A program made the translations under genes and the position numbers. From contig JAFRCC010000001.1 in the NCBI GenBank assembly GCA_017404545.1, forward strand, positions 2,335 through 66,334: a stretch of DNA of 64,000 bases, read 5' to 3'. Below, one piece after another: positions 3,851-63,909 of the stretch; positions within the stretch are counted from its first letter, which is position 1; each line of letters opens with the position of its first letter. Source of the stretch: Clostridia bacterium. Lineage in GTDB: Bacteria > Bacillota > Clostridia > TANB77 > CAG-508. The notes under the pieces are model-generated. The model worked only from the letters and a program-made list of their open reading frames with translations, did no database searches and was not told the DNA's origin.

Positions 3851-3876
3851 TGTAGAAATGTTTTTTGGGGGTATAT

Positions 3877-6396
3877 ATGGAATTAGATGATGAAATGTTG
3901 GTAAAAATATTATTCGAAGCTTCAATAATTCAAGATAAAATTGCAAGAATAGATGGAGATAAATGCGAAGTAGTATTGCCAGATGGAAGTCGTAAGGAAT
4001 TTTCAAGGAAGAAGATATCTCAGGCAATAAGACTAGGACTTGAAGATACATATGCGTATGCAGAAGCATATTTTGAATTAGTATCTGGATTGAGTTCTAC
4101 AGGGAAAATAAATAACAGATCAAAAGAAATTGAAGAGTACGTAAATCACATTAAAGATTCTATAGAACAAGAAATAGATAAAAAATATCGTGAAAAATTA
4201 TTGAGTAATGATGAGAGGCAGGAATTACTATGCAAGGAATATGTAAAAAGGGTGAATAGCAATTGTGTAGGGTTATTGTATATTATGCAAAGAATACAGG
4301 AAAATTTTCCACAGTCTGAACAAGAAGCTCCATATTTTGATGAGATAACTAAAAAAACTTTACAAATTATGAATCATGTATGTGAGTATGAGCCAAATTT
4401 TAAAGAAGGAGTGTTGGCAAATTTATTTGATAATTCTGCATCAAATAGAGTATTGGAAACCATAAAAAGGAGTTTTAGACAAACCAAATTTCTATCAGAT
4501 GAAGAAGTAATACTATTTATTAATCGATATATGAGTGAAGATGAATTAAAAAGCTTTATTCATAAACATGGAGATATTTTTATAAAACGTGGACCTGTAG
4601 TAAAATTTTTAACAGAACGAAATGACGGGCAAACTAACAATTCAAAATCAGGATTAATGAGCAAAGATGAATTTTACGGAAATATTGATGAAAAAGTTTT
4701 AGAAGAAGTATTTCTTCATACTGGAGCAAGGTATATTTTAAAATACTTATCTGGTGAATTTATAAAAGAGATGTATGAAAGAGAAGAAATAAATTTTCAA
4801 ACATATGTTAAATATGCTCCTAAAAGAGATATAGTAGATATGTATTTTAGCGGAGAATTAGATGTGGCATTATATCACAACAATATATCTATTACAGAAA
4901 TTCTTCAGCTGGAAATTCCTCAGGAAGATATGATAAAAGCTCTCACAGACAAAAGAGGTAGGGCTTTATTTCACCACGATGAAACAGCAGAAATATGGCG
5001 TATGTTTGAAAGTGGAAAAATTTCTATAGATACAGTTAGAGCAATGGAAAGGTTAAAATATTTTTCGTCTCAAGCTCTAGTTAATTTATATTACAAGAGC
5101 AATGCAAGAAAAATTGCTGCAGAGCTTGGAGAGGTAGATTCATTATCAAATGAAAAGTTACTTAAATATTTTACACCAGATGTTGTATATGGTATTTTAA
5201 AGAGAACATTAAATGATAGTGAAAAATCATTTTATAATAAAGATTTAAAAGGTATCTATGAAATTGCAAATGAGAATCTAGAAGATAATATTTCTGAACA
5301 AATTGATGAAAACGACAAAGAGAATAAATCGGAAGTGTATTTTGATTTATACGAAAAAGGATTCTTTTCAGCGAGAGCACTTGCTAATCATGAAATTGCT
5401 GAAGAGGACGCAGAAGCATATTGTAATAGGAAAAACAAAGAAAAAACAATTTTAATAGATTTTTTTAATAATGGTGTTATATCTCAAGATGTAATCTTTA
5501 GCTTATATAGTGACAATTTCGATGAAAAGGCTTTAGAATTAATAAATGCTGGAATGAGTGCTAAAGTAATCCAGGGGCTATATTCTACTGCCGAAATTAT
5601 AAGATTAATAAATAAATCAGAATTATCGTTATCAAGTGTTTTAGAAATAAAATCCGACATAAATACTGGATTAAATACGGATAATAGCCAAGCTAGGCAA
5701 AATGTACCAAATCTTTTAGATTTGTATTTAAAAGGTGAACTCGATTATGCTGAATTATATGGATTGGCAAGTAGCGGAATAATAACGATAGATGAAGCAA
5801 ATGAAATAAATGAAAAATATAATATATTAAAGGACTGGGAAGATTTAAAGAAACAAGGTGTTGAAGGACATCCACTTATAGGAGGAAATCAGCAAGATCC
5901 TACATCTAATAATTCAAATCCATCTGGTTCAAAGGATGTAATAGGAATTGATGATGGATGTATCATAGATTTTTATGTTGCGTTAGGTGCTACAGAATAT
6001 CTAGAAATTGATTCAAAAAAGTGTCCAGTTTTCAAAGATTATATTATTATTCCAGTTTTCCAGAAGAAAGTTGCGTATCTAGAAGGGAAAGATGGTAGAA
6101 CATATATTGTTCCAATCAAGATTGTTTTGGAGCAGATAAACAATCCGCGAAGTGAGCTTGATTTAATTGGTAATGCTCCGTCAAGAAATGATTTTAATAA
6201 TAATAAAAAATATATTCGAGGAGCAAATCATACAAGAAATTGGGGAAGAAATGTTGTTATGAAAATGGCAGAGCTTCCATCTGTTCCAATGACAACAGAT
6301 GAAGCAGAAGAATTTTTAAAGAAAAAGCAAGACATCATTACAAGTATTCAAAACTCGTACGATACAAGAAAAATTGGATGCAATCACAAAAGGTAA
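3877..6396 (+). CDS. large hypothetical protein (839 aa from ATG 3877), mostly helical with a distinct C-terminal domain
   Basis: ORF 3865-6396. GGGGG lies 5 nt before ATG 3877. I recognised no catalytic motif. Degenerate repeats of the type LYxxGxISxxE occur between about residues 520 and 660. Confidence 0.75.
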   Translation: MELDDEMLVKILFEASIIQDKIARIDGDKCEVVLPDGSRKEFSRKKISQAIRLGLEDTYAYAEAYFELVSGLSSTGKINNRSKEIEEYVNHIKDSIEQEIDKKYREKLLSNDERQELLCKEYVKRVNSNCVGLLYIMQRIQENFPQSEQEAPYFDEITKKTLQIMNHVCEYEPNFKEGVLANLFDNSASNRVLETIKRSFRQTKFLSDEEVILFINRYMSEDELKSFIHKHGDIFIKRGPVVKFLTERNDGQTNNSKSGLMSKDEFYGNIDEKVLEEVFLHTGARYILKYLSGEFIKEMYEREEINFQTYVKYAPKRDIVDMYFSGELDVALYHNNISITEILQLEIPQEDMIKALTDKRGRALFHHDETAEIWRMFESGKISIDTVRAMERLKYFSSQALVNLYYKSNARKIAAELGEVDSLSNEKLLKYFTPDVVYGILKRTLNDSEKSFYNKDLKGIYEIANENLEDNISEQIDENDKENKSEVYFDLYEKGFFSARALANHEIAEEDAEAYCNRKNKEKTILIDFFNNGVISQDVIFSLYSDNFDEKALELINAGMSAKVIQGLYSTAEIIRLINKSELSLSSVLEIKSDINTGLNTDNSQARQNVPNLLDLYLKGELDYAELYGLASSGIITIDEANEINEKYNILKDWEDLKKQGVEGHPLIGGNQQDPTSNNSNPSGSKDVIGIDDGCIIDFYVALGATEYLEIDSKKCPVFKDYIIIPVFQKKVAYLEGKDGRTYIVPIKIVLEQINNPRSELDLIGNAPSRNDFNNNKKYIRGANHTRNWGRNVVMKMAELPSVPMTTDEAEEFLKKKQDIITSIQNSYDTRKIGCNHKR

Positions 6397-17766: not shown

Positions 17767-18153
17767 ATGGAAGATGATTTTGAAGTAGCAGAGAAAGCAA
17801 GAGAATATTCTTGTTCACCATATTCTCATTTTGCTGTAGGGGCAGCTCTTAGAGCAAAAAATGGTAAGGTGTATATGGGATGTAATATCGAAAATAATGG
17901 AATTCAAGCAATTTGCGCAGAGCGTACTGCTTTTGCAAAGGCACTATCAGAAGGAGAACGAGAATTTGAAAGTATAACTATTCTTGGAGCACCTGCCGGT
18001 GAAAAGGCTATAAATGAGTGTGTTCCATGTGGATATTGCAGGCAATTTATGAATGAATATGTTGATGATAAATTTAAAATATATACAAGACAAGGTGAAG
18101 AAATAAAAGCATATGCTATGAAGGATTTATTACCACATAGTTTTAAATTTTAG
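17767..18153 (+). CDS. cdd: cytidine deaminase
   Basis: 128-aa ORF with the CAERTA and PCGYCRQF zinc-binding motifs. Confidence 0.93.
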   Translation: MEDDFEVAEKAREYSCSPYSHFAVGAALRAKNGKVYMGCNIENNGIQAICAERTAFAKALSEGEREFESITILGAPAGEKAINECVPCGYCRQFMNEYVDDKFKIYTRQGEEIKAYAMKDLLPHSFKF

Positions 18154-18176
18154 TAAAAAGAATGTTATAGTTTAAT

Positions 18177-18374
18177 ACTTCTTTTGTTTGGAACTGGCAC
18201 AAGAAGGCTAATAGCCGTGTGTTTTAAAAGTCCCGCGTAGCGACCAACTGTAGTGTATACGTAGGGCGATTGGAGTAATCGAAGATTACGACAACAAGGG
18301 CGCTAAAACACACGGCTATTAGCCTTCTTGCGACGTTTTTACTACCGCAAGTGTTAAACAGGAACAAAAGAAGT
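18177..18374. repeat. nested perfect inverted repeats (12-bp outer, 27-bp inner) enclosing a 77-nt GC-rich core
   Basis: Outer pair: 18177-18188 with 18363-18374. Inner pair: 18200-18226 with 18304-18330, exact complements. There is an extra hairpin at 18275-18289. Confidence 0.85.
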
Positions 18375-20264
18375 TCGTTTGCGTTTATTTCGCCAATTAT
18401 TGCTGCATATGTAGCTGGTGCATCATCAGGGAATCCATCAGATGGGTTAGCAGGAGCAATGACAGGAATAATGGTTGTTGGTGTTGTTTACATTATTGTT
18501 TCACTTTTAGTTAGAGCAATCGGAAAGAATTGGATTGATAAATTATTGCCACCAGTAGTAATTGGACCAATGATTATGATTATTGGTCTTGGCCTAGCAA
18601 GTTCAGCTGTGAATAGTATAGGTATTGGTGCAGGTGTAGAAAATATAGAATGGAAGGGCGTTTTGGTTGCTGCAATAACATTTTTAACAACAGCAATTAT
18701 AATGGTTAGAGGAAAAGGATTTATAAAAATAATACCATTTTTGGTTGGTATTGTTGTTGGATATATTGTTTCAGTTTGTTTAGGGTTAGTTGATTTTACT
18801 ATGGTAAATGAAGCGGCTTGGTTCCAAGTGCCAAACTTTAATATACCATACGTAACGTATAATCCTAACTTTATGATTGCACTTACTATGGCGCCAATAG
18901 CCTTGGTCACAATGGCTGAGCACATTGGGGACCATACAGCTTTAGGAACGATTATAGGAAAAGATTTATTGAAGAAACCAGGACTAGAAAATACACTTCT
19001 AGGAGATGGTTTAGCAACTTTTGTAGCAGGCGTTTTAGGCGGGCCGGCTAATACAACATACGGAGAAAATACGTCCGTAGTTGGAATGACAAAGGTGGCA
19101 TCTGTGTGGGTTATAGGTTTAGCTGCAATATTTGCTATAGTATTCGGATTTTTAGGCAAATTTACAGCACTTATTCAAACAATTCCGAGCCATGTGCTAG
19201 GCGGAATTTCGCTTTTATTATATGGATTTATAGCGGTAAATGGTTTGAAAGTTTTAATCCAAAATCAAATCGATTTTGGGAAGAATAAAAATATTATTGT
19301 AGCATCTTGTATGCTTGTTTTAGGACTAGGAGGTGCTGTAATTAATTTTAAGACAAGTGGTGACATGACTATCCCGCTTTCAGGAATGAGTTTGGCTGCA
19401 ATTGCTGGAATATTATTAAATTTAATACTACCAAATGAAAAAGATGAAGAGGATAAACCTTCAGAAAAAAATAAAACTATAGTAAAAGCAAAAGTTGTTG
19501 GCGAGAATTCAATAAGAATAAAAATTGAAGAAACTAATAATGAAAAAAATCAAGAAAAAAGTAAAATAACCAAAAAAGATGTAGTAAATGAAAATGTAAA
19601 AAAAGAAGAGGAGTCTGATATTATGAGAGAATTTGAAAATGTTGTAGAATTAAATCATCCATTAATTGAACATAAACTTGGAATTTTAAGGAGTAAAAAT
19701 ACAGGAACAAAAGAGTTTAGAGAATTAGCAAATGAAATAGGAATGTTTTTATGTTATAGAGCAATGGAAGATGTTGAACTTGAAGATACTGAGGTTGAGA
19801 CACCATTGTGCAAGATGAAAACAGGAAGACTTGATGAAGATAAATTTGCATTTATTCCAATTTTAAGAGCTGGAATGGGAATTCTTGATGGAGTAATAAA
19901 TGTTATACCGAATGCAAAAGTCGGTCATATTGGAATGTACAGAGATGAAAATAATAATCATAAACCAGTAAATTATTTCTTTAAGGTTCCAAAAAATATT
20001 GAAAACAAAGAAGCGATAATACTTGATCCAATGCTTGCTACAGGTGGAAGTGCAATAGATGCAATAGAGCTATTAAAAGAAAAAGGAGTTAAGAAAATAA
20101 AATTCCTATGTCTAATTGCAGCACCAGAAGGTCTAAAAGCTGTAACAGAAAAACATCCAGATGTAAAGATTTATTGTGCGCATATAGACGAAAAGCTAAA
20201 TGAAGATGCATACATAGTACCTGGTTTAGGAGACGCAGGTGATAGAATATATGGAACAAAATGA
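18351..20264 (+). CDS. single ORF: uracil permease lacking about 70 N-terminal residues, Lys/Glu-rich linker, and a complete uracil phosphoribosyltransferase
   Basis: 637-codon ORF. It aligns with UraA/PyrP only from SSFAFISPII onward (TTYGENT motif present). The Upp module runs from MREFENVVELNHPLIEHKL to the end with no stop codon between the two parts. Confidence 0.75.
   Translation: MLNRNKRSSFAFISPIIAAYVAGASSGNPSDGLAGAMTGIMVVGVVYIIVSLLVRAIGKNWIDKLLPPVVIGPMIMIIGLGLASSAVNSIGIGAGVENIEWKGVLVAAITFLTTAIIMVRGKGFIKIIPFLVGIVVGYIVSVCLGLVDFTMVNEAAWFQVPNFNIPYVTYNPNFMIALTMAPIALVTMAEHIGDHTALGTIIGKDLLKKPGLENTLLGDGLATFVAGVLGGPANTTYGENTSVVGMTKVASVWVIGLAAIFAIVFGFLGKFTALIQTIPSHVLGGISLLLYGFIAVNGLKVLIQNQIDFGKNKNIIVASCMLVLGLGGAVINFKTSGDMTIPLSGMSLAAIAGILLNLILPNEKDEEDKPSEKNKTIVKAKVVGENSIRIKIEETNNEKNQEKSKITKKDVVNENVKKEEESDIMREFENVVELNHPLIEHKLGILRSKNTGTKEFRELANEIGMFLCYRAMEDVELEDTEVETPLCKMKTGRLDEDKFAFIPILRAGMGILDGVINVIPNAKVGHIGMYRDENNNHKPVNYFFKVPKNIENKEAIILDPMLATGGSAIDAIELLKEKGVKKIKFLCLIAAPEGLKAVTEKHPDVKIYCAHIDEKLNEDAYIVPGLGDAGDRIYGTK
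19623..20264 (+). CDS. upp: uracil phosphoribosyltransferase (possible independent initiation inside the long ORF)
   Basis: ATG 19623 is preceded by GAGGAG 9 nt upstream. The 213-aa product has the PRPP loop ILDPMLATGGS and a C-terminal YIVPGLGDAGDR. Confidence 0.6.
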   Translation: MREFENVVELNHPLIEHKLGILRSKNTGTKEFRELANEIGMFLCYRAMEDVELEDTEVETPLCKMKTGRLDEDKFAFIPILRAGMGILDGVINVIPNAKVGHIGMYRDENNNHKPVNYFFKVPKNIENKEAIILDPMLATGGSAIDAIELLKEKGVKKIKFLCLIAAPEGLKAVTEKHPDVKIYCAHIDEKLNEDAYIVPGLGDAGDRIYGTK

Positions 20265-20280: not shown

Positions 20281-20309
20281 TTGACATAATACAAAATAAA
20301 TGATACAAT
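20281..20309 (+). promoter_or_regulatory. sigma-A type promoter of the second GC-rich cassette
   Basis: TTGACA (20281-20286), 17-nt spacer, TACAAT (20304-20309). Confidence 0.55.
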
Positions 20310-20398: not shown

Positions 20399-20683
20399 AT
20401 GAAACCGAAATTTGAGATGAGAATCGAAAAGGTTGTACAGGTGACAATGCATAAACCGAAGGTCATCAAGGCAATCAACGGCATCAAGTTTCCTGAAGCG
20501 TGGGAGAGTAGTTATGATGCAGGAACCAATGAGGCAGTTTGCCACAAGTGGGCAGCTACATGCGGAGCAAGCATCGACCAGATTCACGTTGAAAACGACA
20601 AAATCAAGTTCTATTTCAGATTTCCCAGTGTGGAAGCAGCAAGAGATTTTATCAAGGATTTCGAAGTTAATTGCTGCAAGTAA
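20399..20683 (+). CDS. hypothetical small protein (94 aa), compositionally foreign
   Basis: ORF 20330-20683. CGGAGG at 20386-20391 lies 7 nt before ATG 20399. A strong terminator follows. I recognised no family. The protein ends in ..NCCK. Confidence 0.6.
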   Translation: MKPKFEMRIEKVVQVTMHKPKVIKAINGIKFPEAWESSYDAGTNEAVCHKWAATCGASIDQIHVENDKIKFYFRFPSVEAARDFIKDFEVNCCK

Positions 20684-38342: not shown

Positions 38343-38435
38343 ATGAAAACCATATTTTTTTGATAAATTTATATTATTGAAAAAGTGCATAGAATAATAT
38401 ATAATTGCACAAATATTTTTAGGAGGTATGAGAGT

Positions 38436-39821
38436 ATGAAGATTAATTTTTATAATACTTTAACAAAGAAAAAAGAAGAGTTTAAACCAATTAATGAGGA
38501 TAAAGTCTGTATGTACTCTTGTGGTCCTACAGTATATTACTATCCACATATAGGAAACTTAAGGGCATATTTATTTATGGATTCACTACGCAGAACATTA
38601 AAATATAATGGGTATGAACTTAAACATGTAATGAACATAACTGATGTTGGCCATCTTGTTTCAGATGCGGACGATGGTGAAGACAAAATGATGAAAGCAG
38701 CAAAACGCGAAAATAAAAATCCATTTGAAATTGCAGATTTTTATACGAACGTATTTTTACAAGATTTAAAAAAATTGAATATTGATATGCCAGAAATAAT
38801 TGCTAGAGCAACTCAACATATTAAGTGTATGGAAGAATATGTAAAGAAAATTATTGCAAATGGTTACACATATGAAACTGAAGATACAATATATTTTGAT
38901 ACATCTAAATTAGATAAGTATGGAGTTTTATCAAACAAAGACGTAAAAGAAGAAGATTTAGAAGCTAGAATTGAAGTAGATCCAAATAAAAAGCATCCGA
39001 ATGATTTTGCAGTATGGTTTAGAGCTCCAGAAAATCATTTAATGAAGTGGGATACTTTCTGGGGAAAATGTTATCCAGGTTGGCATTTGGAGTGTTCTGC
39101 AATGGGCCATGAGTATTTAGGCGAAGAGTTCGACATACATACTGGCGGTATAGATCATATTCCAGTACATCACGAAAACGAGATTGCTCAAGCCAAAGGG
39201 TATTGTGGTAAAATTCCAGCTCACTACTGGATGCATGTTGAGTTTTTACAAGTTGATGGAAGAAAAATGTCTAAGAGCTTAAATAACTTATATACAATTG
39301 ATCAGTTAAATGATATGGGTTATGAGCCAGCAGTATTTAGAATGTTTAATATAGGAGCGCATTATAAAAAGCAAATAAACTTTACCATAGATGCAATGGA
39401 TGCAGCCAAAACTGCACTTGCTAGATTAAGAGAGGGATATTTAAAACATAAAGAAGGTACTGCAGAAATCAATAACAATGTAATTGATGAGTACGAAAAT
39501 AAATTTCACGAGGCAATTAATGATGATTTGAACATGCCGGTGGCAATGAGTGTTGTATGGGAAGTTATAAAGAACCCAAGTAAATCAAAGCAATTTGCAA
39601 AGTTAATTGATAAGTTTGATACTGTAATGGGATTTAATTTAAAAGAATATGTTCCAGAAACCCAGGAATTACCAGAAGAGATAATAAGTTTAGTAAATCA
39701 AAGGAATGAAGCAAGAAAAAATAAAGATTGGGCTGAATCAGACAGATTAAGAGACGAATTAATTTCAAGAGGATATTCTGTTAAAGATAGCAAAGAAGGA
39801 ACTATCATAGAAAAAAAATAG
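38436..39821 (+). CDS. cysS: cysteine--tRNA ligase
   Basis: ORF 38385-39821. AGGAGG precedes ATG 38436. Motifs: class I HIGN (YPHIGNLRAY), KMSKS, and the zinc site CYPGWHLECS. Confidence 0.96.
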   Translation: MKINFYNTLTKKKEEFKPINEDKVCMYSCGPTVYYYPHIGNLRAYLFMDSLRRTLKYNGYELKHVMNITDVGHLVSDADDGEDKMMKAAKRENKNPFEIADFYTNVFLQDLKKLNIDMPEIIARATQHIKCMEEYVKKIIANGYTYETEDTIYFDTSKLDKYGVLSNKDVKEEDLEARIEVDPNKKHPNDFAVWFRAPENHLMKWDTFWGKCYPGWHLECSAMGHEYLGEEFDIHTGGIDHIPVHHENEIAQAKGYCGKIPAHYWMHVEFLQVDGRKMSKSLNNLYTIDQLNDMGYEPAVFRMFNIGAHYKKQINFTIDAMDAAKTALARLREGYLKHKEGTAEINNNVIDEYENKFHEAINDDLNMPVAMSVVWEVIKNPSKSKQFAKLIDKFDTVMGFNLKEYVPETQELPEEIISLVNQRNEARKNKDWAESDRLRDELISRGYSVKDSKEGTIIEKK

Positions 39822-41301: not shown

Positions 41302-41757
41302 ATGAATAAATTGGTTGCAAAGAATCCAAACGCAAGACACAATTACACAATTGAAGATACTATTGAGGCTGGAATTGTTTTAACTGGTACAGAGATTAAA
41401 TCTATAAGAGCAGGGAAGGTAAATTTAAAAGATAGCTACGCAGGTATAAAAAATGGTGAAGTATATATTTATTCAATGCATATTAGTCCTTATGAACAGG
41501 GAAATATTTTTAATAAAGATCCATTAAGAGATAGAAAATTACTTTTAAATAGGCTTGAAATTACAAGGTTATCAGTAAAAATAAAGCAGAAGGGATATTC
41601 ACTTATACCAATGAGTCTATATTTTAAAGGCGATATTGTAAAGGTTGAATTAGGTATTGGAAAAGGTAAGAAGCTATATGATAAAAGGGAAGATATTGCA
41701 AAAAAAGATGCAGAGCGTAGAATGAAACAAGCTCAAAGTGAGAAGAATAATTATTAA
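41302..41757 (+). CDS. smpB: SsrA-binding protein SmpB
   Basis: 151-aa ORF with NRKARHNY-like [20 protein letters not shown] and LLLNRLEI. Confidence 0.96.
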
Positions 41758-42281: not shown

Positions 42282-42423
42282 TAGATAAAACCCTCCTTTG
42301 TATAATCAAGCTAATTTTGCTCAAGTTTATTATTTACCAAAAATATAATTTTATACAAAAATTTAATCGTTGATGTACAATGAGGAGTATAGGACTATAT
42401 GGATGGTGTGTTTGAAGTAAAAT

Positions 42424-42478
42424 AAAAAGAAACGATTAAGATTGTGAATTTATTTCAATTTCTTAATCGTTTCTTTTT
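42424..42478. terminator. 17-bp perfect stem-loop, bidirectional terminator
   Basis: AAAAAGAAACGATTAAG / CTTAATCGTTTCTTTTT. Confidence 0.8.
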
Positions 42479-42525
42479 GTATTAAATATTGTCTTTTGCA
42501 ATTATCATAATGTATGCTATTGTTC

Positions 42526-42804
42526 CTATCTTTTCAAACGTGTATAAATTGCAATAGCAAGTAAAATAAGTACTATACCAACTGCAATAAGTAATATATT
42601 TATAATATTAGGCACGTATAGAATCTCATTTTCTTCTGATGAGGTATCTTTTATGGTTGTTGAAATTTGACCAGATGGTTGGGATTGTGTAGTTCCTGTT
42701 GTTTCTGCAGGCACAGTATTATCAGCACGAACAATATTACAAAATCCAAAACATGCAAATGTTAGTATAAACAATGTTACAAAAATTTTCGAAAAATATT
42801 TCAT
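42526..42804 (-). CDS. small signal-peptide protein with a C-terminal TM anchor
   Basis: 92-aa ORF with a GGAGG RBS. It has hydrophobic N- and C-termini and a Thr/Ser-rich middle. Confidence 0.65.
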   Translation of the reverse strand: MKYFSKIFVTLFILTFACFGFCNIVRADNTVPAETTGTTQSQPSGQISTTIKDTSSEENEILYVPNIINILLIAVGIVLILLAIAIYTRLKR

Positions 42805-42915
42805 CTTTTACCTCCAAAATTAAATACAATATGTTATTATAATAACATAAAATAATGAAAAAAGTCTATATAAAATAAAAATAATATGATAGAATCAGGG
42901 AAAAAGGAGGCCATT

Positions 42916-63008: not shown

Positions 63009-63156
63009 TACATAAAAGTAGTTTTATGAAATATTTTATATATTATAAAAGTAAAATATCGTAAAACTACTTTTAATAATTTTGAATAATAATCAGCACG
63101 CTAGTATTCTTTTATATAATGTTATAATTTCACATTTTATGTTTAATCTGCCTATA

Positions 63157-63183
63157 AAAGTGTTAAACAGTAACATTAATTTG
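63157..63183. repeat. 27-nt direct repeat copy 1 containing the palindrome TGTTA-N5-TAACA
   Basis: AAAAGTGTTAAACAGTAACATTAATTT. Copy 2 lies 80 nt downstream with two mismatches. Confidence 0.7.
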
Positions 63184-63236
63184 TTACTATTTAATAGTTA
63201 TGATAACAACAATCCTTTCTCTGACCTTGTTAAATA

Positions 63237-63263
63237 AAAAGTGTTAAACTATAACATTAATTT
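63237..63263. repeat. 27-nt direct repeat copy 2 containing the palindrome TGTTA-N5-TAACA
   Basis: AAAAGTGTTAAACTATAACATTAATTT. Confidence 0.7.
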
Positions 63264-63369: not shown

Positions 63370-63909
63370 ATGGAAAATAATGTCATAAAGGAAAACCAAT
63401 TAGAAGTATTGCCTAAGAATGAAATCGCAACAATAGTGGAATTAAATAATCTTCCTGTGGCAAAAGATAAAAAGGAATTGTTACCTACAATTATTAGAAA
63501 AGAAGCATTGGCTCTAGTTGAAATAAAAAAAGAATTTTATAACGTTAAGAAACAGCGCTCAATATATGGATTAGCGTGGTTCCTAAAGAAAGTAGCTGTG
63601 CTCTGCGCAAAATTGATTAGATATTTATTTTTAGGAGTAACTAGGTTAGTTAGTTTTGTAATGTTTTCTGTAATTGTGATTTTGTCTACAACAATAATAA
63701 CAAGAAATGTTGTGAATTCATTGTATGGTGTTAGAGCAACTGAAGTTGATGGTACTGGTTTTTCTATATTTAGTGTAAAAGATGATGAAGAAGCAAAAGC
63801 ACATGCAGATATGATGGAATCTAAGTCAGATGAGAGTAGAGATAATACCTCTGAGCAAATGGAAGAAAAGCAATCGGATCCAGAGGTTGATGAGACTGAA
63901 GATGAATGA
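63370..63909 (+). CDS. hypothetical membrane protein with an acidic C-terminal tail
   Basis: 179-aa ORF with upstream GGAGGTG. It has two central hydrophobic helices and a Glu/Asp-rich end. Confidence 0.6.
   Translation: MENNVIKENQLEVLPKNEIATIVELNNLPVAKDKKELLPTIIRKEALALVEIKKEFYNVKKQRSIYGLAWFLKKVAVLCAKLIRYLFLGVTRLVSFVMFSVIVILSTTIITRNVVNSLYGVRATEVDGTGFSIFSVKDDEEAKAHADMMESKSDESRDNTSEQMEEKQSDPEVDETEDE

Follow-up and report, generated by a model that had tools for sequence, protein, structure and literature searches.

Replacement of the 5′ end of a uracil permease–uracil phosphoribosyltransferase gene by a small palindromic repeat block in a Clostridia bacterium

Short repeats that fold back on themselves occur in bacteria in several described forms. 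MITEs and REPINs disrupt genes, donate promoters and are cut by RNase III (PMC10969869; PMC3116915); copies of a MITE can number as few as 1 per genome (PMC10969869), and the spacings reported for the REPINs of P. fluorescens are 71 and 110 bp (PMC3116915). In other systems, a short segment, intergenic or at a 5′ end, lies between inverted repeats, as in the invertons described with PhaseFinder and DeepInverton (PMC11602134, PMC11892184), or inverted repeats enclose a long hairpin, as in the msr-msd region of retrons. The locus considered here has something in common with each of these. It lies between a cytidine deaminase gene and a uracil permease gene in a 64-kb stretch of a contig from a gut Clostridia strain, hereafter the window, to which all unlabelled coordinates refer.

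Architecture of the block and the elements it resembles

The locus comprises the following features.

17767-18153, plus strand: cdd (cytidine deaminase; Pfam dCMP_cyt_deam_1), the intact upstream neighbour, with its stop codon at 18151-18153
18142-18171, plus strand: promoter-like site TTTAAA-18-TG-TATAGT with an extended -10, a consensus match only (consensus scan)
18154-18369, no strand: non-homologous block, with no similarity to the loci of relatives (homology resumes at 18370), no protein match in six frames and no Rfam family
18177-18188, plus strand: left arm of the outer inverted repeat (ACTTCTTTTGTT; repeat computation)
18200-18226, plus strand: left 27-bp arm of the inner inverted repeat, holding the mini-palindrome GGCTAATAGCC (repeat computation)
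18227-18303, no strand: 77-nt centre (fold and composition)
18304-18330, plus strand: right 27-bp arm of the inner inverted repeat (repeat computation)
18363-18374, plus strand: right arm of the outer inverted repeat (AACAAAAGAAGT; repeat computation, and comparison with relatives L003, L013 and L014, which have ..GGAAGTTC..)
18370-19622, plus strand: uracil permease remnant, from TM3 of UraA onward, with a Lys/Glu-rich linker (Pfam, UraA in the PDB, alignment with relatives, dN/dS)
19608-20264, plus strand: complete uracil phosphoribosyltransferase (UPRTase) domain, with an in-frame GAGGAG (19608-19613) and ATG (19623) upstream (Pfam, PDB 1i5e, reading of the sequence)

When the repeats were recomputed, the elements described in the initial annotation of this DNA were all recovered in place: a perfect 27-bp inverted repeat (18200-18226 and 18304-18330) with 77 nt between its arms, a perfect 12-bp inverted repeat within which it is nested (18177-18188 and 18363-18374), and a 6-bp hairpin, GTAATC-GAA-GATTAC, at 18275-18289. 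The 27-bp arms are 100% complementary, for 0 matches expected in shuffled sequence. They form the longest perfect inverted repeat of the window, in which all other long inverted repeats are AT-rich, terminator-like hairpins, and the 27-mer is present in the 64 kb solely as these two arms. Arms and centre together make up a 131-nt unit with 27-bp terminal inverted repeats, which is nested between the 12-bp inverted repeat and inverted copies of a further motif, M, described below.

The block had also been noted as foreign to its AT-rich surroundings, and its composition bears this out: the G+C content of its 198 nt is 43.9%, against 30.2% for the whole window, and only 0.7% of 198-nt windows are as rich. 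The centre is indeed about half G+C, the original count of 38 in 77 nt having to be corrected to 39 (51%). Folding of 18154-18400 as RNA, a check proposed with the initial annotation, gave a very stable structure of -86.2 kcal/mol (z = -6.4 relative to shuffles); the centre folded by itself yields two small hairpins, one of them that at 18275-18289. Transcription from the promoter-like site at 18142-18171 would begin at about 18178, at the first base of the outer arm.

MITE or foldback elements, such as Correia of Neisseria and MITEAba12, offer the first comparison. Like them, the block is small (131-215 nt) and non-coding, carries terminal inverted repeats of ~26-27 bp, lies directly upstream of or inside a gene that it disrupts, has promoter-like sequence at its edge and would form an RNase III-type hairpin in mRNA. 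Unlike them, it has no target-site duplication, no second copy of its arms and no known parent IS or transposase, and a second inverted repeat surrounds its arms, which are perfect. The foldback or MITE-like insertion put forward initially thus came closest of the ideas in the inverted repeats (27 bp, perfect), the size (131 nt) and the lack of coding capacity (no protein relative), and falls short in the target-site duplication and the additional arm copies, of which none were found in 74 kb of the genome or in sequence collections scanned for exact 21-24-mers. REPINs and BIMEs, which are mobilised by RAYT proteins, are similar in other respects: here too, two short inverted repeats ~70-110 nt apart form a long hairpin, each 27-nt arm holds a small palindrome of its own, and M alternates in orientation at a second locus, at 63.1 kb, as REPs do in BIMEs. 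REPINs number tens to hundreds per genome, however, whereas in 74 kb of this genome the arms occupy one locus and M two; the palindrome of M is weak and AT-rich, and no RAYT gene or RAYT-like ORF was seen in the window. Because target-site duplication and copy number fail as far as these searches reach, we do not file the block as a MITE or a REPIN, and describe it as something that may work like one or the other, these being the closest counterparts.

The truncated permease–UPRTase gene and the corresponding locus in relatives

The ORF at 18351-20264 runs from the uracil permease part into a complete UPRTase, in frame and without a stop, a continuation which the initial annotation overlooked. 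The permease part matches positions 67-385 only of the 389 of Pfam Xan_ur_permease, and its alignment to E. coli UraA from the PDB begins at UraA residue 71. The initial estimate of ~70 missing N-terminal residues therefore holds against E. coli UraA. Against the closest homologues, fusion proteins 84-85% identical with 88 extra N-terminal residues, it has to be raised to 88, and TM1 and TM2 lie within this stretch. That the N-terminus is not encoded between cdd and the ORF was correctly seen, and the absence extends further, since tblastn detected no coding sequence for it on either strand of the whole 64-kb window. The UPRTase domain, by comparison, is complete (positions 3-206 of 206 of Pfam UPRTase; E = 4e-76 with PDB 1i5e). 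The permease remnant is without a convincing ribosome-binding site or start codon: the GTG at 18351 has no ribosome-binding site, and the ATG at 18471 chosen by the gene caller also cuts off part of TM3.

The fusion itself is natural and widespread in Clostridia, and no accident of this contig. The same permease–UPRTase architecture is found in thousands of Clostridia proteins of 656-736 aa (P0002-P0120 among them), with a linker that is rich in Lys and Glu and variable in length; a literature search gave no description of it. Measured against the full set of 14 TM helices, the copy in the window lacks TM1-TM2 and retains a complete Upp, and is thus a truncated member of this fusion family.

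Four loci from relatives (L003, L006, L013 and L014) were available for comparison. The order YqeK-like HD protein, cdd, permease-upp and MurB is common to these and the window, in which the neighbours of the block are YqeK, cdd, permease-upp, a 94-aa ORF and MurB. The 94-aa ORF (20399-20683) is conserved, also occurs in relatives and is of unknown function; ahead of it, directly after upp, lies a near-consensus promoter, TTGACA-17-TG-TACAAT, at 20281-20309. The gap between cdd and the permease gene is occupied in 4/4 relatives by a conserved leader of ~270 nt with a mean column identity of 82%.

L003 3735-4003, L006 3745-4003, L013 1352-1621 and L014 2740-3003: leader between cdd and permease-upp in relatives (locus comparison)

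Within this leader are a promoter (TTGTAA ... TGTTATAAG), a leader ORF of ~32 codons with a ribosome-binding site, and a perfect terminator, ACTAGAA..TTCTAGT followed by T8, and then a hairpin beside the ribosome-binding site of the permease. In this layout it looks like a leader-peptide attenuator; it belongs to no Rfam family and is not the PyrR site that one might expect. A small lipoprotein gene precedes the leader in two or three of the four relatives and is missing from L014.

Homology between the window and the relatives ends at the cdd stop codon and resumes at 18370. The sequence in between, 18154-18369, takes the place of permease codons 1-88 together with the promoter and leader-peptide attenuator of the ancestor, so that the replaced length is between ~0.5 kb, on the layout of L014, and ~1.0 kb, on that of L003. 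The block resembles none of the relatives' loci and is present in 0/4 of them; its derivation from their leader or 5′ coding sequence was considered and discarded, as no similarity was found. This comparison clearly supports the initial view that the block was inserted or substituted here and does not represent an ordinary leader, because relatives have a leader and 88 codons in its place. The converse situation, in which relatives share the block as their leader and their permeases start at this point, was encountered in none of the four. No closer relative is present in databases, the best having 85% amino-acid identity.

It might be asked whether the missing 5′ end was lost at all. If the gene was split by a rearrangement without deletion, its 5′ half (leader and ~81 codons) would survive elsewhere in the same genome. 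A protein search with the missing N-terminus returned only short proteins, the best of which, P0121, is encoded by a fragment from the same study.

L021 1-420: permease codons 1-81 joined to unrelated DNA (SAMN15829846; protein P0121)

The DNA of this fragment is 84-87% identical to the same relatives, which is also the distance of the window, and its junction, too, falls in a hairpin, in this case an 11-bp terminator hairpin (AGAGGGTTTCC/GGAAACCCTCT) that overlaps the permease by its first 5 nt. Nevertheless, L021 is not assignable to this strain and has no repeat in common with the block, and other N-terminal fragments ending in unrelated or frameshifted sequence exist (P0129, P0146). In addition, cdd adjoins the 3′ half of the gene in the window, so that a single inversion cannot explain both arrangements. 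L021 may represent the second half of a split gene, or an unrelated rearrangement or chimera, and a split that spared the 5′ half appears very unlikely.

The right junction of the block retains traces of the event. The outer right arm ends in 5 nt, GAAGT at 18370-18374, that belong to native permease codons 88-89 (relatives GGAAGTTC), such that block and permease meet in a 5-nt microhomology, and it is with these native GAAGT bases that the left outer arm pairs. No target-site duplication is found in any register: the flanks of the inner unit are GGCA and CGAC, and those of the outer inverted repeat TTTAAT and TCGTTT. An adjacent deletion would erase a target-site duplication, the absence of which is therefore not decisive. 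In the simplest reading, a pre-existing inverted-repeat unit ending in ...AACAAAAGAAGT would have recombined with the permease gene at the 5-nt identity. Taken together, the microhomology at the junction and the lack of a target-site duplication disfavour clean transposition, and the event looks like an illegitimate, microhomology-mediated deletion beside a hairpin element.

The replacement is recent relative to the divergence of the species (dS > 1), as judged from three properties of the sequence: the remainder of the ORF is intact, with all 630 remaining codons open; the dN/dS of the permease remnant against relatives, 0.03-0.07, equals that among the relatives themselves; and the inverted repeats are perfect.

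Since the contig is derived from a metagenome, and assemblers can produce palindromes, the authenticity of the block also deserves attention. The arrangement of cdd and truncated gene recurs in five contigs from several samples. L016, which comes from another sample, shows 100% identity to the window over 10.6 kb and represents the same strain. L002 represents a second distinguishable strain, with one SNP and different sequence left of 16275, and shares the identical left junction, the left arm and the first 21 nt of the loop, in the same orientation. L020, on the right, begins ~1 kb downstream and so stops short of the block. Because the five contigs and the second strain share the arrangement, an assembly artefact is unlikely; with the whole 131-nt unit also shorter than a read, it seems scarcely credible as an explanation of the block.

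Copies of the block, its border motif and competing explanations

No sequence family was found to which the block could be assigned. Rfam yielded no gathering-level match in the 64-kb window, and searches of a 2.5-kb segment and of the block alone, at gathering level and at E <= 10, returned only generic miRNA-hairpin models, the best score on the block being 29 bits for mir-1781, a generic hairpin, against a threshold of 68. Neither the block nor the rest of the 64 kb contains a tRNA or tmRNA. A known or conserved structured ncRNA, one of the initial hypotheses, thus finds no support, and the retron-like RNA that had been suggested along with it is rejected because no reverse transcriptase is encoded in the window. 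The likeness to retron msr-msd is confined to the short outer inverted repeats, similar to a1/a2, around a long hairpin; the 77-nt apical loop is unlike msd stems, and there is no Rfam match. In the same Rfam and tRNA/tmRNA scans, no tmRNA was found beside smpB (41302-41757), nor a T-box or other leader before cysS (38385-39821). A 600-nt stretch free of genes, 42282-42885, follows the ORF after smpB.

The block was also considered as a fragment of a gene, and this was rejected when a six-frame query found no relative among 5.8 billion proteins. Its 47-aa minus-strand ORF has no Pfam match, and its DNA shows no similarity to plasmids (PLSDB) or phage records. Extra copies of the element, to which the initial annotation had looked for confirmation, did not materialise for arms or loop, and only the 20-nt border motif recurs. 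Neither the 27-nt arm nor the loop recurs in the other 74 kb available from this genome, and IMG/VR and JGI metagenomes contain no exact copy of the arm or of the tested loop segments (a different one per collection); these collection scans needed exact 21-24-mers, and diverged copies would escape them. A single 21-mer match to the arm, on one strand only, was found among GTDB species representatives (L012 3515-3535). It lies inside the yqfD sporulation gene of an unrelated MAG of 50% G+C, in the same frame as the longest ORF of the block. Given that ~0.3 such matches are expected by our own estimate, it is probably due to chance and was not accepted as a real copy. Domains of recombinases, transposases, integrases and reverse transcriptases are absent from ORFs of at least 120 aa in the window. 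The window also contains an 843-aa ORF (3865-6396) with no Pfam domain at E <= 0.001.

When short words of the block were compared with the remainder of the window, a 20-nt motif emerged, M (AAGTGTTAAAC-NN-TAACATT), which contains the dyad TGTTA-N5-TAACA and occurs at both borders of the block and at one other place.

18161-18180, minus strand: left border copy of M (AAGTATTAAACTATAACATT), 19/20 identical to 63239-63258
18349-18368, plus strand: right border copy of M (AAGTGTTAAACAGGAACAAA), cut off where the permease starts and 17/18 identical to 63158-63175
63117-63259, no strand: second M locus, with three clear copies in alternating orientation (also L016 9745-9893, L017 1-140 and L018 1-30)

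Four sites with up to 3 mismatches to M were found where 0.06 were expected, and the local alignments of M beat 500/500 shuffles; similarity between the left border of the block and the 63.1-kb locus spans ~34-50 nt. The copies at 63.1 kb are at 63118-63137 (minus strand), 63158-63177 (plus) and 63239-63258 (plus), and two of them make up an inverted repeat with 30-nt arms (83% complementary) and 83 nt between them. The cluster lies upstream of a gene for a 179-aa membrane protein (63370-63909) without Pfam or NCBIfam hit. M is confined to these two loci, both intergenic; neither 35 kb of sequence from relatives nor another 10 kb of this genome contains it. An M 18-mer gave 6 single matches in IMG/VR, which we judge consistent with chance for an AT-rich 18-mer. 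Its absence from the 35 kb of relatives marks M as a lineage-specific repeat, and a block bracketed by inverted copies of such a repeat argues against random filler DNA. By its dyad, M could equally be the operator of a transcription factor, and no end of a mobile element.

This observation bears on the most conservative account of the block, a non-mobile repair scar. According to it, the 5′ part of the gene suffered a double-strand break or replication error, repair of which lost ~0.5 kb and captured or synthesised filler DNA, with template switching as the origin of the inverted repeats. Such a scar would accommodate several observations: no search turned up a further copy of the arms, block and permease meet in a microhomology on the right, there is neither a target-site duplication nor a transposase in the window, and perfect inverted repeats are expected of a recent copy-back event. 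Template switching should, however, copy local DNA, and arms and loop match neither the relatives' locus nor the rest of the window; nor would random filler be expected to share at both borders a motif that recurs 45 kb away. On balance we regard a repair scar as unlikely.

Selection for a regulatory function would provide a different explanation. Hairpins may act as 5′ stabilisers or RNase III sites, as is known for Correia elements. In the present case M could be an operator at two promoters, the 5′ hairpin a selected RNA, or both, in control of upp. The M dyad is found only in two intergenic regions, the extended -10 overlaps the left M, the outer stem is exactly where the transcript would begin, the fold is highly stable, and MITE inverted repeats are known both as RNase III targets and as promoter donors (PMC10969869), which all fits such a role. 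Yet M and the block are both missing from the homologous promoter of every relative compared, the block has no homologues in which covariation could show, a perfect 27-bp helix is atypical of RNAs that sense ligands or proteins, and the target gene is without its own start. A functional regulatory region is accordingly held to be distinctly improbable.

Two loci with the same inverted-repeat motif are also reminiscent of master-invertase regulons, such as those of B. fragilis Mpi and C. difficile RecV. In an inverton or phase switch of this kind, a recombinase encoded elsewhere would flip 18227-18303 or 18181-18348, and likewise the M-bounded segment at 63.1 kb. The short segment flanked by inverted repeats is in keeping with this, as is the fact that contigs of other samples break at M or show a variant junction there: L017 matches the window at 100% identity from 63237 on and carries, upstream of that M copy, 114 nt of different sequence, and a third contig, L018, begins at 63233. 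The 114 nt align weakly with the reverse complement of the left part of the block (score 50, versus 28 +/- 4.4 in shuffles). Direct comparison shows that L017 is not the inverted form of 63117-63259; it represents structural variation or a chimeric join at the repeat, and either way points to another M-linked copy elsewhere. At the block, no promoter-like site was detected by consensus scan within 18181-18348 in the assembled orientation, and no promoter candidate was seen when the flipped loop was read by eye. Moreover, a core of 77 nt leaves very little length for recombinase synapsis, the 64 kb encode no recombinase or nearby invertase, and only one orientation has been observed, the partial extra contig L002 having the loop in the same orientation as the window. 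With neither an internal promoter nor a recombinase in the window, and unlike described invertons in these respects, the block is very improbable as a switch. A candidate sigma-54 promoter at 18194, TGGCAC-N5-GGCT, was dismissed by eye for the wrong spacing to its GC element.

It is tempting to go one step further and to regard the block and the M-bounded structure at 63.1 kb as members of a new family of recombination-active foldback elements, in which a recombinase encoded elsewhere inverts or exchanges DNA between M sites. We consider this a long shot. If true, it would explain the variant junction of L017, and the locus would be a phase-variable upp switch; even a reversible splitting of the permease, with an L021-like 5′ half parked elsewhere, would be conceivable.

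Proposed course of events and its consequences

The explanation that we tentatively favour, while giving it somewhat less than an even chance, is a small non-coding foldback, MITE-like repeat element tied to an illegitimate deletion that killed the permease half of the gene. The ancestor would have had the order cdd, promoter, leader-peptide attenuator and full-length permease-UPRTase gene. In this lineage, the element would have arrived just downstream of cdd, and illegitimate recombination would have fused its right end to permease codons 88-89 via GAAGT, with the loss of ~0.5 kb, or of ~1 kb if the small lipoprotein gene was there. Insertion would thus have preceded deletion, and the element would have been mobile. 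Its perfect arms, its odd composition and the presence of M at both borders would be in line with such an element, as would the weak similarity of the 114 nt of L017 to the left part of the block; the native GAAGT bases in the right arm fit an inverted-repeat unit that was formed beforehand and fused by microhomology.

For the cell, the consequences would differ between the two halves of the fusion. The transporter half is predicted to be dead, because TM1-TM2, the native start and the ribosome-binding site are gone. The pyrimidine-responsive leader would have been lost with them, and with it any pyrimidine control exerted by the ancestral attenuator. Synthesis of the UPRTase half may continue from the internal GAGGAG/ATG (19608-19625): its domain is intact and preceded by these in-frame signals, which makes independent translation of Upp possible. 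A upp mRNA started from the extended -10 (TG-TATAGT, 18163-18171) inside the left M would have its 5′ end buried in the hairpin.

The block is, in sum, a real feature of an ordinary kind, a recent and strain-specific replacement of the 5′ end of a gene by a small palindromic repeat block, and it gives no sign of a new switch or RNA gene. If the foldback-element reading is true, this strain would have lost uracil uptake and the pyrimidine-responsive control of its fusion gene. The 597-aa “uracil permease/UPRTase” predicted by the gene caller could then not transport, which is a warning for annotation, and the locus would add one more case of hairpin repeats reshaping genes in uncultured rumen Clostridia.
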